DNA of 39,487 nucleotides. It comes from a virus. The notes under the pieces were generated by a model that made no database searches, was not told where the DNA came from, and was given only the letters and a program-made list of their open reading frames with translations. The translations under genes and the position numbers were made by a program. The stretch is taken from positions 1 to 39,487 of IMG/VR virus record IMGVR_UViG_3300045988_112560, one strand, 5' to 3'. Positions 2,421 to 38,952 of the stretch are shown here, in pieces. The first letter of the stretch is position 1, and each line of letters begins with the position of its first letter.

Positions 2421-3020
2421 TCATGCTTCCACCGCCTTAGCAGGGCGGAACGGGCCGGCATTTACCACCTGCACGCTGTCCGTATAGAACCATGGGCGCG
2501 TGAAACACCAATCACCGTCGCTAATGCGTATGATATGCACTTTGCCGTCGCACATCGTCCACGTGTTACCGACCCTGTCCAGCCAGAGTCCGTCATGGTC
2601 GGGGAGCTTCGGGGTTGGACGCAAAGCGTAGCCGAAGTAGGAACGGTGTGGGTAGAAGGTCGTGTTGATGACTGCTACCGTCAGGGGCTGGAGATTGGAC
2701 GTAGTGCGTTGCAAGACGGTGTACCGGTTGCCGTCCGTGCCGACGTACACGTCGCCTTCGCGCACGTCCTCGATGTTGTCGATACGCTCGTACTCGGGGT
2801 CATCCAACAGTTCAATGGACTCGATGTCCCTGTAGGGGACGAAGCGCTCTGCCCCTCGATTGGCAGAAATGGGCACGACGGAGCCGTTTCTACTGCGCCT
2901 AATGTGCCCGGAACAGTCGGTGATTCCTGTAAGCACGGCACCGGCCACAAATGTGACCTTGACGTGCAGGTTTGCCATCTCTTCGCAGGTCTTGCCTTCC
3001 CAGAATGGTTTCTCACTCAT
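2421..3020 (-). CDS. Hypothetical protein (199 aa)
   Basis: ATG at 3020 with GAAGGAGA RBS and protein-like composition. Confidence 0.65.
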   Translation of the reverse strand: MSEKPFWEGKTCEEMANLHVKVTFVAGAVLTGITDCSGHIRRSRNGSVVPISANRGAERFVPYRDIESIELLDDPEYERIDNIEDVREGDVYVGTDGNRYTVLQRTTSNLQPLTVAVINTTFYPHRSYFGYALRPTPKLPDHDGLWLDRVGNTWTMCDGKVHIIRISDGDWCFTRPWFYTDSVQVVNAGPFRPAKAVEA

Positions 3021-3222
3021 TGTTGTTCTCCTTCTTTTCGTTCGTTTCGATTGCGTCCAGCAGATCGCATTCGGCGAGCATGAGATGCGCCTGGGCGCGG
3101 GTCATTGATTTCAACGTCTGCGCGCCGGCGCCGGCCATCCAGCCAAGAGAGCTCACCTTCGTCTCGAGCAGGTGGGTTTGCGTCGCGAGATCACGCAATC
3201 GTTCATCAAGCAGCATGGTCAT
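3013..3222 (-). CDS. Hypothetical coiled-coil protein (69 aa)
   Basis: ATG at 3222 with AAGGAGGA RBS. Confidence 0.6.
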   Translation of the reverse strand: MTMLLDERLRDLATQTHLLETKVSSLGWMAGAGAQTLKSMTRAQAHLMLAECDLLDAIETNEKKENNNE

Positions 3223-3876: not shown

Positions 3877-4793
3877 GTCAGTACTCCTTCCCGTGATTGG
3901 TTTTCGGCGGCTTCCTCGGCCGCGTAGTGGGCTATCAGTGCCGCGTTCTCATCCTGGTTGGCCTGCGAACGGTTCCACGCCGATGGCGAGGGGCGTGCGG
4001 TCGGCTCGGGTTTGGCCGGCAGCGGGTCATCGTCCCAGTGTTCGCCGTCCAGCCAGTTCGCCGGGGTGAGCGTGTAGCCGGGTTCCCGGTTCGGGTCGGC
4101 GGCGTACCTCGACGCCTTGGCGATCAGGAACGTGTTGTTGGTTTTCCTCCGTGCCTTCCGCCAAGCCGCGTACGCCTTGCGTTTGCCGGTCTTGCGTGGA
4201 TAGGTCTGCCAGAACTGTTCGAACTCGATGGGATAATCCTCGTCGGCTCGCTCTGCGGCCCCCTCGGCTTGCGAGGGGGTTTGGGGGAGAGAGAATTCTT
4301 CGTTAGAAGAATTCTTTTGGTTATTGGTTATTGGTTCTTGGTTCTTGGTTAAAGAGTCCCAGCGTGACTCGGGTGTGACATTCGAATTGTCACGGCGTGA
4401 CATGCTTGTGACATTCGTTTCGTCCCAGCGTGACTCGGGTGTGACATCGGCTTCGGAACGCTGCTTGCGCTTGCGGTTGCGAGCACCCTCCGCCCTCGTC
4501 TCCACCTGTTCGCGGCTGGACTGATGGGAAAGATAATCGTGGATGCGGTAGGAGCCGTCGTCCGAACGTTCGAACATGCCGACCTTGATCAGCGCTTCGA
4601 TGTCCTCTTCGGTCGCGTTGAGCTGGTAGATCACGTCGTCCTCGCTCATCACGCCGTCGTTGAGCACGTCGGAACAGAAGGAAATGGCCATGCAGTACAC
4701 TCCAAGTGCGCTCGGACGCATACGCTGTAGCTTCAGCACTTTCGTGTTCGAATGGAAGCCGTTACTCAGCTTCCCGTAGCCCTGTCTGGCCAT
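3870..4793 (-). CDS. Replication initiator/replisome-organizer-like protein with internal iterons
   Basis: ATG at 4793 with AAAGGAGG RBS. The N-terminus looks like a winged helix. The C-terminal motif EFEQFWQTYPRKTGKRKAYAAWRKA is typical of phage DnaD/organizer-like proteins. The gene contains an ori-like repeat cluster. Confidence 0.6.
   Translation of the reverse strand: MARQGYGKLSNGFHSNTKVLKLQRMRPSALGVYCMAISFCSDVLNDGVMSEDDVIYQLNATEEDIEALIKVGMFERSDDGSYRIHDYLSHQSSREQVETRAEGARNRKRKQRSEADVTPESRWDETNVTSMSRRDNSNVTPESRWDSLTKNQEPITNNQKNSSNEEFSLPQTPSQAEGAAERADEDYPIEFEQFWQTYPRKTGKRKAYAAWRKARRKTNNTFLIAKASRYAADPNREPGYTLTPANWLDGEHWDDDPLPAKPEPTARPSPSAWNRSQANQDENAALIAHYAAEEAAENQSREGVLTC
4292..4447. repeat. 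Putative origin of replication: inverted repeat, AT-rich heptamer array and iterons
   Basis: AGAATTCTTC-GTTA-GAAGAATTCT lies at 4292-4315. Five tandem TTGGTT(A/C) units lie at 4317-4351. The 25-nt direct repeat TCCCAGCGTGACTCGGGTGTGACAT occurs at 4357-4381 and 4423-4447. GTGACAT occurs four times in total. Confidence 0.6.
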
Positions 4794-5656: not shown

Positions 5657-6123
5657 CAGAAGCTCGGATCACTGGACCATGGGTCGGAGGCCGGAGGCTG
5701 AGACTGCTGGAAGCCACCTTGCGACTGCTGCGTGTAACCGGCCTGCGCGCCGTAACCCTGCTGTCCGCCGGTCTTCTGGCGAACGTTGGTGATGGCCACA
5801 GCGCTGGCGTTGACGTTGCAGCTTGCGGCGGGCTCGCCATTCTTGTTCGTGTAGGCGTCGAGGCCGCTGATTTCGCCCACGATGGTCACGTCCACGAACT
5901 GGTCCTGATTCTGACGCAACTGGCTGATCTGGTCGAACACGGGGTTGAGGTTCGCGTAGCCAGCAGGCCACACCGAGTAGTACTGTTCCGGCTGGCTTTT
6001 CCAGTTGCCGTTCCGGTCACGGTAGCCGGGCGTCACCGATACGCTCAGACACCGTTTGCCGTTCTGCGTTTCTCGCACGCCCCATGCCGTGCCCTGGATG
6101 ATGATGGTCGTTCTTCCCGCCAT
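5656..6123 (-). CDS. ssb: Single-stranded DNA-binding protein
   Basis: OB-fold-like N-terminus, a G/Q-rich linker and an acidic/aromatic C-terminal tip DPWSSDPSF. AAGGAAGGG RBS. Confidence 0.8.
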   Translation of the reverse strand: MAGRTTIIIQGTAWGVRETQNGKRCLSVSVTPGYRDRNGNWKSQPEQYYSVWPAGYANLNPVFDQISQLRQNQDQFVDVTIVGEISGLDAYTNKNGEPAASCNVNASAVAITNVRQKTGGQQGYGAQAGYTQQSQGGFQQSQPPASDPWSSDPSF

Positions 6124-13865: not shown

Positions 13866-14053
13866 TTGAGACGGGAGTAGGTCTAAGCGGCTTTTCTCCG
13901 TAGGGTTCGAGTCCCACCGGAGGCACCTTCGCTAGACTGTGGAAAATAGCCGCTTTGCCTTACGGGAGTAGGGCTGAGCGGCTTTTCTTATTCCCGGCTA
14001 TTCCCGCGTATTCCATTGGTTTCCCGAGATAATGTGGGCAAAATGTGGGCAAA
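13821..14053. other. attP region with a tRNA 3'-end-like core and arm-type repeats
   Basis: The core GGGTTCGAGTCCCACCGGAGGCACC at 13903-13927 looks like a T-loop plus acceptor 3' strand. AATGTGGGCAAAATGTGGGCAAA occurs at 13821-13843 and 14031-14053. A 27-nt repeat occurs at 13871-13897 and 13962-13988. Four tandem 10-bp TATTCCC-type units lie at 13989-14028. Confidence 0.65.
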
Positions 14054-14168
14054 AACTGGGCCCCGCGTCTTGTGGCTGCGGGGTCCTGCATTGTCCTCCG
14101 GGTGTCGGCATGGTGGACGGGTTTGGTCTGGCATTTTCCGACACGCCGGTTACTTTTTGTAACCGAGT

Positions 14169-14178
14169 GTGCTATACT
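14169..14178 (+). promoter_or_regulatory. Extended -10 promoter (TGcTATACT) for the cargo operon
   Basis: TGCTATACT lies at 14170-14178 in an AT-rich patch about 58 nt upstream of the ATG at 14236. Confidence 0.4.
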
Positions 14179-14235
14179 AATAACTGTCAACGGGAAGCAC
14201 AAGGCAAGCCCGGAAAGAGCAGAAAGGCTCCGAAA

Positions 14236-14535
14236 ATGGATATCTACCAGATCAGCAGCTACATCTACAACAACACCGGCAGCGCCATCGACACCGAGGT
14301 GGTCAACGAAATCTGCCCCGACGACACGATCGAGGTCAGCAAGCGCGACAGCAGGCAGTTCCTCGCCATCGGCTTCGACCCCACCGACGACGGCTTCATC
14401 CTCGGCACCCTCTGGTATCGCTACGAGAACGGTGACAAGGAGGCGGTGGAGGAAGGCCTCTGCTGGCATATCGACGGCGAGGAAGACTATGGCACGCTCG
14501 ACGATATCTGCGAATACGCCCGCAAGGAGCTCTGA
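14236..14535 (+). CDS. Small highly acidic protein (99 aa)
   Basis: Internal ATG at 14236 with GAAAGG upstream. By my count it has 24 D/E against 7 K/R. The ORF-track N-terminal extension is Cys/Gly-rich and unlikely to be coding. Confidence 0.6.
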   Translation: MDIYQISSYIYNNTGSAIDTEVVNEICPDDTIEVSKRDSRQFLAIGFDPTDDGFILGTLWYRYENGDKEAVEEGLCWHIDGEEDYGTLDDICEYARKEL

Positions 14536-14685
14536 TACGGGCCTATACTGGTTCCATCGGCATCGATAGCCGTATGTCGCCCATCACGGGCGTGGATTGA
14601 AACATTCTTTTTGACGGCAGTATGCCCGGTCTTATGGCCGGGCCTGCGAAAGCACACCTTTTTTCACGTTTTTTAAGGAGTCATC

Positions 14686-15009
14686 ATGACCGTATTCACC
14701 GATCACAAGCGCACCGTCAACCTCGAGCTGCAGAACTGGGACGGCGACGACTGGTCGCCCGACTGGAGCCGCGATTTCTGGAACGTCGGCGAACTGAAGA
14801 ACCTCAACGACGATTCGGACGTGTTCCCGGAGGACGGCCCCTACGCGGCACTGCTCGAAAAGCATGACCTCAGCGCATCCGAGCCGGTCTACGAGGTCGA
14901 GGACATCGATTACCTCATCGACTACGCCAACGACATGATCAACGGCGAAGGCGATTACGCGGACAACCCCAGCCCGAACACCTCGCTGTTCGCCACCGAA
15001 CTGGACTAG
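14686..15009 (+). CDS. Small highly acidic protein (107 aa)
   Basis: AAGGAG RBS at 14675-14680. By my count it has 27 D/E against 5 K/R, and it is Trp/Asp-rich. Confidence 0.65.
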   Translation: MTVFTDHKRTVNLELQNWDGDDWSPDWSRDFWNVGELKNLNDDSDVFPEDGPYAALLEKHDLSASEPVYEVEDIDYLIDYANDMINGEGDYADNPSPNTSLFATELD

Positions 15010-15013
15010 CGCG

Positions 15014-15838
15014 ATGAGCCGGCGGAAGAAACTGCGGCTCACCCCATCATGGTTGCCGGTCATCCGTGACCATCTGGTAGAGGATGGCCGGCAACGCGCC
15101 GCCTTGGCCAAGACGGGCGGATTGCTGCCGGTGGACGAACTGGTCGATTCCATGTACGGCGAGTTGGATGGTTTGGAGGCGGCGAGCCTGTGGTGGGTCA
15201 ACAGCGACATGTGCAAAGTCGTGGAAGCCCAGTTCAGGTCGGGCGAGCTGCCTGAAACCCCCGAATATCCCACGACCAACGGTTTCGTCGTGTACGAGGA
15301 CGGTGTTTCATGTATCACGAATCTTGGCACGATGCTGGTCAACGCCGTCGCATGGGAGGCAACAGCTGGGCGGATAGGTTTGCGCCTGTACACGTCGGAC
15401 CCGGATACGGTGCGGCGCACGGTTCTTGACAAGCGCCTTCCCATTTGTCCGATGGACGTGGAGGTGGTGCCCACCGCGTTGGGCGTGGTGCTTGACGTGA
15501 CTATGGCGTTGATGCGCGAGCCGCGAGTCAGCGCGGTCAAACCGTGCGTTTGGCGGACGGAACGGGACGGCCCCCGCCCCGTGAGCATGGAACGCCAGTC
15601 CGCGAAAGTGAAGATGATAGTGCTGCGTCCGGGGCCCAGAAGCCAATCTTCGGAATGGGCGCCGCGTTCGAGAAGGCGATGCGAGTACCGGTATTTCGTC
15701 CGTGGGTTCTGGCGCAACCAAGCGTACGGGCCTGCGCATTCCAAACGCAGACGGCAATGGGTTGCTCCGTTCGTGAGAGGCCCGGAAGACGGGCCGTTGG
15801 TCATCAAGGAGGCGGTGAGCGTATGGACGCACCAGTGA
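15014..15838 (+). CDS. Hypothetical protein (274 aa) with an Arg-rich C-terminus
   Basis: ATG 4 nt after the upstream stop. GC3 favours this frame. The C-terminus reads RRRCEYRYFVRGFWRNQAYGPAHSKRRRQWVAPFVRGPEDGPL. I recognise no family. Confidence 0.6.
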   Translation: MSRRKKLRLTPSWLPVIRDHLVEDGRQRAALAKTGGLLPVDELVDSMYGELDGLEAASLWWVNSDMCKVVEAQFRSGELPETPEYPTTNGFVVYEDGVSCITNLGTMLVNAVAWEATAGRIGLRLYTSDPDTVRRTVLDKRLPICPMDVEVVPTALGVVLDVTMALMREPRVSAVKPCVWRTERDGPRPVSMERQSAKVKMIVLRPGPRSQSSEWAPRSRRRCEYRYFVRGFWRNQAYGPAHSKRRRQWVAPFVRGPEDGPLVIKEAVSVWTHQ

Positions 15839-16707
15839 CACGGCTGATAGCCGAGTACTTGGCGAGCGTTCCGGCGAAAAGCCGACCCGCGTATAAGCGG
15901 GTGCTGGGCTTGTGGCTGAAATGGTGTTCCGACAACAGGTTGAACGTGCTGCAGATCCGTCGTTTCCATATCGATGCCTACAGGGTGTGGAGGATAGAGC
16001 GGTTGGGCAAACAGCCGGCCACCGTGGCGAGTGAGCTTGTGCCGATATGCTGCTTTTACGAGTACCTGTGGCAGGAGCAGTATATCGAACGCAATCCGGC
16101 AGAACATGTGAAACGTCCCAAGCTGCGCCGTTGGAGTGACGGCTCGTGGCTTCCACCGGAACAGGCCGCGCCATTCCTTGACCTGGCTGAGGCCGACCAC
16201 AGGGCTTTCGTCGGCGCGGCTTGTTGCCTGCTGTTGCTCAACGGGCTGAGGGCAAGCGAACCGCTGAAACTGGACATATCCGACTACTACCGTGTGGGCG
16301 ATACGCCGGTGGTGCATGTCAACAGGAAGTTCGATTGGATGCAGGAGGTCGGCTTGTCCGAACGCGCCGCCAAGGCGGTGGAACGAGCGATAGGCGAACG
16401 TCGGAAAGGGCCGCTGCTTGTCTGGAGGGGCAAGCGCGTCACCTATCCGCAGCTCGCAAGCGTCGTGGCCGTCTTGGGCGAGAAAGTGGGTTCGGCGCGT
16501 AGAATCACGCCGCACTCGTTGCGCCGGTCGTTCGCCACGGAAGCACGACGCCGCAAAATCCCCGACAGGGAGATCATGGCCTCGGGTGGCTGGAGTACCC
16601 GTGAGATGCTTGACAGGTACGACATGAACAGGCTCGCTGTGGAGAACACCGCCAGCGTCGCCGTGGCAGAATCATTGAAGAAGCAGAAAATGGAGGATGC
16701 ATCATGA
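15823..16707 (+). CDS. Xer/Cre-type tyrosine recombinase (294 aa), the second recombinase of the phage
   Basis: ATG at 15823 with AGGAGG RBS and a 16-nt overlap with the upstream gene. The N-terminus looks like a SAM-like core-binding domain. Catalytic motifs are GLRASE, HSLRRSFAT and GGWSTREMLDRY. Confidence 0.8.
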   Translation: MDAPVTRLIAEYLASVPAKSRPAYKRVLGLWLKWCSDNRLNVLQIRRFHIDAYRVWRIERLGKQPATVASELVPICCFYEYLWQEQYIERNPAEHVKRPKLRRWSDGSWLPPEQAAPFLDLAEADHRAFVGAACCLLLLNGLRASEPLKLDISDYYRVGDTPVVHVNRKFDWMQEVGLSERAAKAVERAIGERRKGPLLVWRGKRVTYPQLASVVAVLGEKVGSARRITPHSLRRSFATEARRRKIPDREIMASGGWSTREMLDRYDMNRLAVENTASVAVAESLKKQKMEDAS

Positions 16708-17060
16708 CGATGACGAGCGCCGAGATGAAATGCCTGCGCGAGAGCATGGGCCTGACCACGAAATGGCTGGCCGCCCGGTGGGACGTCGCCGAGTTCAGCG
16801 TGAAGCGCTGGGAACGTGACCGGTATCTGCCGGACAATCTCGAAACCGACCTGCGCGGGCTCAAACGCCGCTTCGACACGGAAGTGCGGCATACGGCCGC
16901 CGTCACCGCCGAAGCCGGTGAGGAGGCCGCCGTCATCGTGCCGAGAACCGAGCCGGAATCGACCGGCGGTATGCCCGCCGCGTGGCACCGTGCCATCGCC
17001 CAACGCGCACGGGAGCTTTCCGGCGCACGAATCCTGTACACCGATGACGAACAGCTGTAG
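16704..17060 (+). CDS. HTH (XRE-like) DNA-binding protein (118 aa)
   Basis: ATGA overlap with the recombinase stop. Contains MKCLRESMGLTTKWLAARWDVAEFSVKRWERDR. Confidence 0.6.
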   Translation: MTMTSAEMKCLRESMGLTTKWLAARWDVAEFSVKRWERDRYLPDNLETDLRGLKRRFDTEVRHTAAVTAEAGEEAAVIVPRTEPESTGGMPAAWHRAIAQRARELSGARILYTDDEQL

Positions 17061-17079
17061 TCGTTACGTCCAGACATGT

Positions 17080-17111
17080 TTTATAACACATATTCGATTA
17101 TGTGTTATAAA
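17080..17111. repeat. Perfect 13-6-13 inverted repeat (lox/dif-like candidate recombination or operator site)
   Basis: TTTATAACACATA-TTCGAT-TATGTGTTATAAA. The spacer is asymmetric. It sits in an AT-rich island 20 nt after the HTH gene stop. Confidence 0.6.
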
Positions 17112-17237
17112 TCGGTGACTTATCATAACCGATTTCGGGGGCGTATGATAGGAATGACAATGACGGCAATCAGCTTTGTCTTCTGGCTCCCTGGTGAACG
17201 CGACTTGTCTGGCCCGATCTGCTAGGGAATTAGACAA

Positions 17238-17298
17238 TCGGCCCCGTCCGGCTCGCAGGTTGACTCTATTCGAGTCGCCTGCGATGCCGGGCGGGGCC
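17238..17298. terminator. Long GC-rich hairpin between the convergent cargo operon and lysis cassette
   Basis: CGGCCCCGTCCGGCTCGCAGG...CCTGCGATGCCGGGCGGGGCCG. On the minus strand it is followed by ATTGTCTAATT. Confidence 0.55.
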
Positions 17299-17311
17299 GA
17301 ACTATGTGTGG

Positions 17312-17572
17312 TCATGCGGCGAGGTCGATGCGTTGTTTGATGGCGCTGACGCCGATGAGCGCGCCGGCGAGGATGCCGAGCGCGTTGAGCGTGGTCACTA
17401 TCGCGTCCACGTGCGGCCAGCCCCATGCGGGGCCGACCGTGTTGACGAACACGGCGAGTGCTGGCAGGACGATGAGGCCGAGCCATTTGAGGATGTCGTA
17501 GACGCGGCTGGGGATGAGCCAGTCTGGCACGATGTCGGTGGATGCCGGTGTATCGGTTGGATTGTCGGTCAT
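17312..17572 (-). CDS. Holin (phage r1t-type)
   Basis: ATG at 17572 with GGAGC RBS. Contains YDILKWLGLIVLPALAVFVNTVGPAWGWPHVDAIVTTLNALGILAGALIGVS, which matches the r1t-holin pattern as recalled. Confidence 0.75.
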   Translation of the reverse strand: MTDNPTDTPASTDIVPDWLIPSRVYDILKWLGLIVLPALAVFVNTVGPAWGWPHVDAIVTTLNALGILAGALIGVSAIKQRIDLAA

Positions 17573-17641
17573 GTTTGCTCCGATCGTAAAAATAATGGTG
17601 ATGCCGTCACCCGCATAATCGGGTGGCGGCATCGGTTTGGA

Positions 17642-18802
17642 TTAGCGGCAGGTCACCACATCGCCCACGTAGTAGACGTTGATGTTGCCGGATGGTACGG
17701 TGCAGCGGCTGACGCTGTAGCCGTGGGACGTGGCGAAATCCCACACGGTATCACCCCACTGGAGGACCTTGGAGACCCCGGTGGACGGTGCGGGGGTGGC
17801 AGTAGAGCCGCCGCCGTAGGTGACGACGTCGCCCACGTAGTAGCGGTTGATGTCACCGCTTGGCGTGTGCCATGCGGACAGGGGCCATGCGTTGTAGGCT
17901 ACGGCGAGTCCCCAGATGGTCTCGCCCCACTGCATGACGTGGCTGATGCCACCCGTGTTGGTGTCGGCCGGGGGAGTGTTCGGCTGTGCGGGCGCGGCCG
18001 GTGTGGCCGGTGGCGTGGAGCCGCCGGCGGGGTTGGCGTACAGGTCCCACTGCCATGCGTCGCCGCGGAACAGGTTGAGGTCGATGGGACTCCACGTGTT
18101 GACGACACCGGTGCCGCTGTACTGTCGCATGGCCTCGCCGTACGCGCCCAGCATCCACGGATTGGCCTGATAGCCGGTCGGGCTCATGTTCGCGTATTGG
18201 GCGATCCACAAACCGTATCGGTCGCGGATGTCCTGCGGGATGGTGCCGGCGACCGGGCCGGTATACAGCAATGGGCGCACACCGCCCGAAAGCCGTTCGC
18301 ACTCACTCATGAAGCGGCGTACCCAGTCCCAATCGCCCCATGCGGGGTTGTCGTCCATCTCCCAGTCGAGCGCCACGATGCCGTGACGCCAATAGTTCGA
18401 CGTATTCGTGTAGAAGAACTGGGCTTCGGCCTCCGGATTGCCTCCCATGGCGTAATGGTAGAGGCCGAATTTCTTGCCGGATGCCTGCGCTTGGGCGATC
18501 ATGCGGTTGGCGTCCGTGTTGACGCCGGACACGAGGCAGTTGTTGTTGACTTGCCCGGTGCCCCATGTGGTGCCGACGACAACGAAGTCGGCCTGCGTGT
18601 TGGCGATGTCGATGCCGCACTGCCAGTTGGACACGTCGATGCCCTGCATGTCCGCGTGCGCGGTCGCAGGGAGCGTCAGCATGCACATGGCGGCGACGAG
18701 CGCCGTGACTTTGGCGAGCAGCCGCTTATACCATGGTTTCGGCTTGCTTTTGTTTTTGAACTTGCCCAAATTCGTTTTCCTTCCTGTGTGTTGGGTGGGC
18801 AT
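17642..18802 (-). CDS. Secreted endolysin: signal peptide, GH25 muramidase and two LysM-like C-terminal repeats
   Basis: The N-terminus KRLLAKVTALVAAMCMLTLPATAHA-DMQGIDVSNWQ leads into the GH25 signature. Two ~45-aa repeats follow (QWGETIWGLA..VGDVVTY and QWGDTVWDFA..VGDVVTC). Confidence 0.8.
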   Translation of the reverse strand: MPTQHTGRKTNLGKFKNKSKPKPWYKRLLAKVTALVAAMCMLTLPATAHADMQGIDVSNWQCGIDIANTQADFVVVGTTWGTGQVNNNCLVSGVNTDANRMIAQAQASGKKFGLYHYAMGGNPEAEAQFFYTNTSNYWRHGIVALDWEMDDNPAWGDWDWVRRFMSECERLSGGVRPLLYTGPVAGTIPQDIRDRYGLWIAQYANMSPTGYQANPWMLGAYGEAMRQYSGTGVVNTWSPIDLNLFRGDAWQWDLYANPAGGSTPPATPAAPAQPNTPPADTNTGGISHVMQWGETIWGLAVAYNAWPLSAWHTPSGDINRYYVGDVVTYGGGSTATPAPSTGVSKVLQWGDTVWDFATSHGYSVSRCTVPSGNINVYYVGDVVTCR

Positions 18803-19252: not shown

Positions 19253-19720
19253 TCAGTTGATGTTCAGGGGCATGGTCGAGCCGGTGAAGAACGATTCGTC
19301 GCTGCCGGCCTCGGTGCAGATGATTTGATAGAACGCGGTGTCCTTGCCGATCCGGCCTCGGAAGATGAGGCGCACGACACCGTCGGAGGGCACGGTGAAA
19401 ACGATTCGAATGCGTTTATTGTCGGCCCAGCTCTCGGAATGGCCCAATGTGGCGGAGTGGGAGTCCTGGACCTCCATGAGGGGGCCTCGGAACGTGTCCG
19501 TGGCCTCGGCGGCGCCGCAGGACGCGACGAACGCGCACCTCACGCCCGCCGGAAGGCCGGAGACCACCCATTCGGCGTAGCCGCCGATGAGGTCGGACGA
19601 ATGCCGCAGGATGATGCCCGGACTGTCCGGAGAACCCCACTGGTTGACGCTGCAGTCGAGACTCCTCGTGGGTTTCGGATCGCCGAACATGGGGTTCGGG
19701 AACCAGTTATGTCGCATCAT
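19253..19720 (-). CDS. Minor tail/receptor-binding-like protein (155 aa, CBM-like)
   Basis: The N-terminal NWFPNPMFG and C-terminal FFTGSTMPL resemble the N-x-x-P-N-P-x-F...YFDG pattern of actinophage minor tail proteins. Confidence 0.55.
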   Translation of the reverse strand: MMRHNWFPNPMFGDPKPTRSLDCSVNQWGSPDSPGIILRHSSDLIGGYAEWVVSGLPAGVRCAFVASCGAAEATDTFRGPLMEVQDSHSATLGHSESWADNKRIRIVFTVPSDGVVRLIFRGRIGKDTAFYQIICTEAGSDESFFTGSTMPLNIN

Positions 19721-38876: not shown

Positions 38877-38952
38877 TGGCATGCGCGGTTGGCTTCGATC
38901 CAACGACCTGCGGTTTTGGAGACCGCCGCTCTACCTGCTGAGCTACGCGCAT
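38877..38952 (-). tRNA. tRNA-Trp (anticodon CCA), CCA end encoded
   Basis: Manual cloverleaf, 76 nt: ATGCGCG-TA-GCTC-AGCAGGTA-GAGC-G-GCGGT-CTCCAAA-ACCGC-AGGTC-GTTGG-ATCGAAG-CCAAC-CGCGCAT-G-CCA. All stems are Watson-Crick, U33 is present, and the discriminator is G73. The T-loop has A at position 54, which is atypical. Confidence 0.8.

Follow-up and report, generated by a model that had tools for sequence, protein, structure and literature searches.

An AT-rich palindrome at the 3' end of a second-recombinase cassette in a Bifidobacterium temperate phage

Does the AT-rich palindrome that follows a small tyrosine recombinase gene in a Bifidobacterium phage serve as the site on which that recombinase acts? 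The question was raised by the initial annotation of the window (the whole stretch of DNA analysed, 39,487 nt), in which the palindrome was read as a lox/dif-like site, either the cognate site of the adjacent recombinase or a mimic of host dif, with an operator of the adjacent helix-turn-helix (HTH) protein as the main alternative. The window is a Bifidobacterium temperate phage, and the deposited phage closest to it is BigBern1 of B. asteroides. Strictly speaking, the palindrome is neither lox- nor dif-like, and since its distribution is patchy, only a modest claim is made for it. Judged from its conservation, it is most likely a cassette-specific, sequence-specific protein-binding dyad.

The cassette and its palindrome

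The early genes on the + strand end in a canonical 396-aa integrase (12675-13865), followed by attP-like repeats (13815-14064; a 27-nt repeat at 13871 and 13962, plus AATGTGGGCAAA repeats). The cassette comes next and encodes, in order, acidic small proteins, a 274-aa protein, the recombinase and an Xre-type HTH protein, and then comes the palindrome. Beyond it lie a conserved stretch of ~125 nt, a long GC hairpin and the convergent holin and GH25 endolysin genes. The features of this region are:

14686-15009, + strand: acidic 107-aa protein, first gene of the cassette
15014-15838, + strand: conserved 274-aa partner protein (phrog_15934), with a fold without known match
15823-16707, + strand: armless Xer-like tyrosine recombinase, 294 aa, no arm-binding domain
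16704-17060, + strand: Xre-type HTH protein, 118 aa, its start overlapping the recombinase stop
17080-17111, no strand: AT-rich palindrome TTTATAACACATA-TTCGAT-TATGTGTTATAAA, 13-6-13
17083-17108, no strand: conserved dyad core ATAACA[C/G]ATA-[T/A][T/C]CG[A/G]T-TAT[G/C]TGTTAT, 26 bp, common to the window and the L014/type-B lineage
17093-17098, no strand: variable centre, TTCGAT in the window and TCCGAT, ATCGAT or ATCGGT in relatives
17109-17135, no strand: second short inverted repeat AAATCGGT-N11-ACCGATTT, overlapping the palindrome end
17124-17130, + strand: third half-site-like motif CATAACC, in the orientation of the left arm
17152-17225, + strand: small ORF MTMTAISFVFWLPGERDLSGPIC, 23 codons, in the interval between palindrome and terminator, status uncertain
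17238-17300, no strand: long GC-rich hairpin, likely the terminator of the convergent lysis operon
17312-17632, - strand: holin (Phage_holin_Dp1), last gene of the convergent late operon

The catalytic residues of the recombinase (R143, K169, H231, R234 and Y266) were invariant among 18 family members, and the protein was closest to XerD/XerA. It scored 62.9 bits with the NCBIfam XerD model (cut-off 329.6) and 60.9 bits with XerC (cut-off 335), and its assignment as an XerC or XerD equivalog was rejected at scores so far under both cut-offs. The gene of the partner protein always lies immediately 5' of the recombinase gene. A structure model of the 274-aa partner (pLDDT 77) matched only uncharacterised phage proteins in BFVD and had no significant match in the PDB. 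A weak precomputed Pfam flag marking it as 'AcrVA2-like' was not reproduced at E ≤ 1 and was discarded, and the PADLOC defence-system models gave no match in the cassette.

The 13-6-13 sequence of the palindrome was confirmed, and it is a single copy as annotated: allowing up to 3 mismatches in each arm gave no other match in the window, and a search for half-sites or a second copy found none there. The AT-rich island in which it had been placed was also borne out (GC of 0.475 in 17000-17199 against 0.6-0.68 on either side; 17064-17136 is one of seven stretches of the window with GC ≤30% over 40 nt), whereas its distance from the HTH stop at 17060 had to be corrected from 20 to 19 nt. With one mismatch allowed the arms extend to 15 nt, and a repeat finder returned the same palindrome as 16-nt arms that are 94% complementary with 0 nt between them. 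The 'spacer' is therefore a palindromic TCGA (17094-17097) flanked by a single T/T mismatch. Arm length by itself was only moderately unusual in the window, the longest perfect palindrome (spacer ≤8) reaching at least 13 in 2 of 60 first-order Markov randomisations. The palindrome is taken to be real because lineages with unalignable non-coding flanks share its inner 26 bp at ~81-85% identity.

Several smaller elements follow the palindrome. CATAACC lies 16 nt past the right arm (ATAAC to GTTAT). The inverted repeat AAATCGGT-N11-ACCGATTT is invariant in sequence among close relatives (type A, below), and its pairing is not maintained by covariation. The small ORF has AGGA upstream and is kept in all type-A relatives, where third codon positions account for roughly half of the substitutions; either a micro-protein or a segment of a small RNA is conceivable. 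In L002 and L105, which are otherwise collinear with the window, the inner 33 nt of the hairpin at 17238-17300 are the exact reverse complement, a flip of the hairpin interior between its 13-bp inverted arms.

The dyad in related phages

Close relatives of the window (type A) keep both arms, with TCCGAT at the centre. The arms were perfect in the other ten type-A relatives sampled besides L226, which has an intact cassette and a recombinase 86% identical, and in which the outer right arm carries three substitutions beside 30 nt that are unchanged. A second lineage, made up of L014 and many type-B contigs, has the 26-bp dyad ATAACAGATAA-TCGA-TTATCTGTTAT. The cassette of L014 is intact, with a recombinase 74% identical, and the HTH gene is absent; there and in L011 the dyad overlaps the recombinase stop codon. 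Between the two lineages 21-22 of the 26 dyad positions are identical, the recombinase genes are ~73% identical in DNA, and the flanking non-coding DNA is unalignable. A symmetric double substitution (ACACATA/TATGTGT against ACAGATA/TATCTGT, exchanging C..G and G..C) preserves the dyad, the centre varies, and only the inner 10-11 bp of each arm are conserved across lineages. The centre is fully palindromic (ATCGAT) in L011, L076, L107 and L110. The asymmetric spacer, which had been held to give the site a direction, is thus a lineage-specific single-base deviation from a centre that is fully symmetric in relatives.

Type-B loci carry an extra 12-bp arm copy, GATAACTGATAA, 41 bp away on the side opposite the recombinase. 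The copy is 92% identical (TTATCAGTTATC against TTATCTGTTATC) and contains two tandem GATAAC motifs, of which L014 (CATAACA) and the window (CATAACC, ~7 nt) keep only (C/G)ATAAC at the same distance. Since the sequence of the arms is conserved over 10-11 bp, and not merely their pairing, and since an extra copy lies at a fixed distance, recognition by a protein is favoured over an RNA hairpin.

As RNA, the palindrome would fold into a hairpin that ends the cassette mRNA and acts as stabiliser, processing site or U-less terminator, or else would be the 3' structure of a short antisense RNA; either role is considered very unlikely. It does lie at the 3' boundary of the cassette operon in every case, and the fold has an energy of -13.9 kcal/mol (z = -5.4). 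Relatives show three substitutions confined to one arm, two in L014 and one in L070, and each of them leaves a G·U pair on the + strand but A·C on the - strand (energies for L070 of -7.9 and -3.5 kcal/mol, respectively); by chance, such an outcome in three cases out of three has a probability of ~1/8. A U tract is found on neither strand, the stem is AU-rich in a phage of 60% GC, and a strong GC hairpin or terminator comes next in every lineage. A hairpin also leaves the extra arm copy unexplained, two of its outer pairs are broken in L226, and Rfam gave no match. An intrinsic terminator was rejected, the stem being AU-rich with no T run on either strand and the terminator scan having made no call.

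The loci that bear the dyad (the window, L226 and L014) form one clade in a neighbour-joining tree of the recombinases. As the dyad is confined to this monophyletic clade, it has been co-inherited with the gene. Fifty-three type-B loci were found through a flanking 15-mer. The dyad is kept in 16 and lost in 37 of them, and an intact recombinase was seen in none. Among type-B loci only L014 has one, and its dyad is the least perfect, with two substitutions; some of the dyad-retaining loci carry single ones. Type B probably arose when the HTH gene was deleted, after which the cassette and the dyad decayed.

In type-B phages the cassette has lost parts through at least five independent deletions (L011/L107, L076/L110, L068/L073/L085/L102, L070/L095/L084 and L146), and several of their junctions show short shared sequences (microhomology). 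The deletion of the L068 group creates an in-frame fusion of an acidic N-terminal domain with the final six codons of the recombinase. An IS605-family TnpB element (Pfam OrfB_IS605, Cas12f1-like TNB) lies exactly at the outer edge of an arm in L071 (1664-2983), in L104, and in L192 and L194. The same IS end is found elsewhere after ...TTTTTAT, so that the target is apparently TTAT. L010, too, carries a TnpB gene, in its case next to the holin gene.

Decay of this kind raises the possibility that the dyad is a relic or a selfish AT-rich hairpin without current function, kept symmetric through intrastrand templated repair and passed on together with the genes beside it. The patchy distribution fits such an origin, as do the persistence of the dyad in loci without a recombinase, its piecemeal loss by microhomology deletions, the degenerate arm of L226 and the IS605-family insertion at the arm edge; the adjacent GC hairpin shows hairpin-driven rearrangement at the locus. 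We nevertheless regard a relic as decidedly unlikely. The dyad is far more conserved than the non-coding DNA around it in lineages whose recombinase genes have diverged to ~73%, the accessory arm copy keeps its distance, and perfect arms are the state of the ten type-A relatives.

Homologous cassettes occupy the same position, between the main integrase and the lysis genes, in prophages of B. olomucense, B. vansinderenii and B. pseudocatenulatum, in several metagenomic phages, in BigBern1 and in corynephage phi16 (ORF29/ORF28). No integrase was identified among the unannotated genes that neighbour the BigBern1 cassette. By itself, the small recombinase is what has been called the 'second tyrosine integrase' in Arthrobacter and Gordonia phages, for which neither a function nor a site is described in the literature. 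In Arthrobacter clusters AY/FF, Gordonia cluster CZ and phi16 (ORF28) this protein is homologous to the recombinase over its full length (27-34% identity) and is encoded at the same genome position, between the tail or lysis genes and the canonical integrase; phi16 and BigBern1 keep a partner of ~280 aa. In contrast to the cassette of the window, all of these loci that were inspected lack the palindrome. A palindrome near the Judy homologue was rejected as an ordinary GC/T-run terminator, and nothing comparable was found near the homologues of Richie, Jablanski and phi16.

Palindrome-free cassettes were found in at least nine other lineages, with recombinases 26-74% identical, and several have only a GC-rich terminator after the recombinase. 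Homologous cassettes without a comparable palindrome had been named beforehand as evidence against a cognate site, and they are largely what was found (L012, L013, L015, L016, L017-19, L227, L230, BigBern1 and phi16). Two of them have repeat clusters of their own at the 3' end: in L013 two 21-bp direct repeats and an inverted repeat, and in L012, where the HTH gene is absent, two 22-bp repeats with an internal inverted repeat.

Other features of these cassettes were recorded in passing. The cassette of L016 (261-5927) lies directly after type I-C cas5d-cas8c-cas7, where cas4, cas1 and cas2 are expected. Duplicated promoter/leader-like elements precede successive small genes in L111 (phi16; 2930-3040 and 5815-5930) and in L017 (2849-2958 and 3825-3926). 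These small genes sit between the integrase and the lysis module, and the arrangement suggests independently transcribed moron-like units.

Candidate binders and the recombination-site reading

The main alternative of the initial annotation was that the palindrome, here together with the extra half-site, is an operator of the adjacent Xre-type HTH protein or of another regulator. A repressor bound there would control weak promoters in the AT island, from which the small ORF beyond the palindrome or an antisense transcript could be expressed; in another version, the protein on the dyad would insulate the cassette from the convergent lysis operon. Position speaks for an operator, with the dyad just 3' of the HTH gene and the only two sigma-70-like (consensus-level) matches of 13800-17700 both inside the AT island, one per strand. 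So does the likely loss of the HTH gene in type B before the cassette and dyad decayed, and so does a strong -10-like element, GTATAATCGGGCCCA, which is aimed through the type-B dyad and stands directly 5' of Xre genes elsewhere. The dyad is nevertheless present in L014 (and type B) without any HTH gene, and the HTH homologues of L013, L227 and L017-19 have no such dyad nearby. No other copy occurs at any promoter of the window, so no autoregulatory operator is evident. The conserved arms of 10-13 bp, spaced 19 bp centre to centre, exceed the operator of one HTH dimer, and the promoter-like hexamers of the AT island vary among type-A relatives. Operators of the main repressor were rejected as a further variant, as its switch region is built on another motif, AAGTAATTACTT. 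Taken together, an operator is somewhat unlikely, yet it is the main rival of the recombinase-site reading below.

The 15-mer GTATAATCGGGCCCA is common to more than 50 contigs that resemble Bifidobacterium phages (e.g. type-B L076 at ~9190-9210; L116, L121, L166, L171 and L186). It reads as a -10 box with a GC-rich discriminator, lies in some contigs 24 nt 5' of an Xre gene, and in type-B loci is directed through the palindrome, antisense to the cassette. The probable immunity switch of the window (9768-9844 and 9866-10692) comprises AT-rich inverted repeats on AAGTAATTACTT and genes for an Xre-type repressor and an ImmA-like HExxH peptidase.

The DNA-binding candidates of the cassette that are common to the window lineage and L014 are the recombinase and its 275-aa partner. 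A dyad that occurs without the HTH gene, and a repeat cluster in L012, which also lacks it, point to one of these two as the common binder. Inheritance of the site with the 3' end of the recombinase gene in L014, again without an HTH gene, is better explained by a tie to the recombinase cassette than by one to the HTH protein. That inheritance, and a geometry and size that fit the core site of a simple tyrosine recombinase, are the parts of the cognate-site proposal that held up.

We tentatively favour a predicted core-plus-accessory site of the armless Xer-like recombinase that would act when two copies meet; recombinase binding, strand exchange and the biological role are what we infer from the sequence. 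One recombinase monomer would bind each arm of ~11-13 bp, cleavage would be staggered around the TCGA centre, and the arm-like distal copy would serve as an accessory site. With one site per genome, the reaction would take place only where two copies meet, as in genome dimers or concatemers, in tandem prophages or when a related phage resides in the same cell, and it would lead to resolution or exchange and not to integration at dif. Against this reading count the many cassettes without a palindrome, the degenerate arm beside the intact cassette of L226, the dyads kept in loci that have lost the recombinase, and the imperfect dyad of L014.

Partners and products of such a reaction were searched for. 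The full dyad was compared with 185,579 genomes, one per species. They contained no partner copy, and Bifidobacterium gave no match; all 44 species-genome matches are in low-GC genomes, many of them Clostridia hairpins (A-tract, stem, T-tract) beside tRNA genes. Among the loci no half-dyad junction was seen, and no rearrangement with its breakpoint in the centre was seen except for one microhomology deletion in L146. The sole candidate for a recombinant site with hybrid arms was rejected, as it lies in an unrelated contig of 33% GC.

Use of the palindrome as a mimic of host dif by host XerCD (IMEX-like), or as attP of the main integrase, is extremely unlikely. For B. animalis and B. adolescentis, dif has been predicted as TCCGATAA-TGTACG-TTATGTCAGAT (Kono et al., 2011, supplement). 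Its XerD arm agrees with the right arm of the palindrome, TTATGTGTTAT, at 8 of 11 positions, but its XerC arm is not matched by the left arm (~3/8). The inner ATAA and TTAT motifs of the palindrome are 4 bp apart, those of dif 6, and the window has neither ATAA-N6-TTAT nor any dif-like match at up to 3 mismatches. The hexamer TTATGT, put forward earlier as the start of the XerD arm of E. coli dif, does match, but nothing beyond the hexamer does, and the resemblance to dif is weak. As to integration, the phage has its own integrase, with attP repeats 3 kb off (13866-14060). Comparison of L017 (prophage form) with L018 (phage form) shows divergence at the point equivalent to attP, which places the crossover there, and on both grounds the palindrome was rejected as attP of the main integrase. 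In all loci the dyad is contiguous with phage DNA on both sides.

A wider proposal, which we hold to be unlikely, is that the cassette (partner of ~275 aa and armless recombinase, with or without the HTH protein) and its site of inverted plus direct repeats together make up a second, self-contained system for site-specific recombination in temperate phages of actinobacteria, distinct from integration. Such a system might resolve multimers of the phage or prophage, or might exchange genome arms site-specifically between related phages. Arm exchange is conceivable because the dyad lies at the border of cassette and lysis genes in one lineage and at the border of cassette and early genes in another.

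Comparison with known recombinase/site systems

The core-plus-accessory reading is closest in design to TnpI/IRS of Tn4430 (and Tn5401). The IRS has a perfectly symmetric 14-bp IR1-IR2 with a 4-bp spacer and a 6-bp cleavage stagger, and the accessory copies DR1 and DR2 on one side; symmetric cores recombine, and the accessory copies give direction (PMC2847244). Both systems have an armless tyrosine recombinase of ~290 aa encoded beside the site, and two symmetric inverted motifs 4 bp apart (around ATTA in the IRS, around TCGA in the palindrome); the candidate accessory copies of the arm also lie, like the DR motifs, on one side only. At the sequence level a symmetric core of this type is present in the dyad of L014 and L011, and in the window as 16/16 with one mismatch. 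The palindrome differs in lying 3' of the recombinase gene, whereas the IRS lies 5', in the promoter region, and in belonging to a temperate phage and not to a Tn3-family transposon. The two DR motifs are of 16 bp, against one extra copy of 12 bp in type B and ~7 nt in the window. The sequences of the two sites show no similarity.

The Xer systems (XerCD/dif, XerS/difSL, XerH/difH and XerA/dif) share with the cassette a recombinase nearest to XerD/XerA and an AT-rich dyad of ~26-32 bp that occurs once per replicon; xerS adjoins difSL. Unlike their sites, the palindrome is not 11-6-11 with ATAA-N6-TTAT, is phage-borne and not at a chromosome terminus, and is absent from most homologous cassettes. 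With Cre/loxP and Flp/FRT it has in common the perfect inverted arms of ~13 bp and a simple tyrosine recombinase on the same element. Its centre, however, is of 6 (or 4) bp and quasi-symmetric or symmetric, against an asymmetric spacer of 8 bp, and the recombinase belongs to neither the Cre nor the Flp family. A simple site of the loxP/FRT type was rejected, as neither an asymmetric 6-8-bp spacer nor two or more copies were found. The palindrome lies ~21 kb from the terminase genes, which makes a P1-like role in cyclisation unlikely.

The Rin/rix shufflon of Bifidobacterium prophages also uses a phage-encoded armless tyrosine recombinase (PMC6109161), in the same host genus. In that system rix is an asymmetric 11-mer, TTCCCTAACCC, present in several copies among segments of receptor-binding-protein genes, whereas the gene of the cassette recombinase, accompanied by that of the 274-aa partner, is flanked by attP and the lysis genes. 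A shufflon was rejected for the window, where invertible segments were not found and the single rix match, with one mismatch (19692-19702, - strand), is compatible with chance.

Many temperate actinobacteriophages (of Bifidobacterium, Corynebacterium, Arthrobacter and Gordonia) carry a small second tyrosine recombinase lacking an assigned role. If the dyad is its substrate, this second recombinase would have a defined DNA site of ~60 bp, and a compact recombinase/site pair from the phage of a gut commensal would be added to those known. Were the second-system reading true, the widespread 'second tyrosine integrase' would gain a function and a tractable substrate; a dyad that is merely an operator or a relic would be an ordinary finding. 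The geometry of a palindrome and its place beside a recombinase gene are not enough to identify it as a recombination site.

Three further observations concern other parts of the window. The near-match to rix, TTCCCGAACCC, encodes FPNP at the N-terminus of a 155-aa gene (19253-19720). An AT-rich stretch at 4290-4410 contains the palindrome GAATTCTTCGTTAGAAGAATTC, five tandem heptads (TGGTTAT/TGGTTCT) and then several GTGACAT repeats, and may be an origin or a regulatory array. Near the right end of the window, 38877-38952 (- strand) is a tRNA-Trp (CCA) gene.
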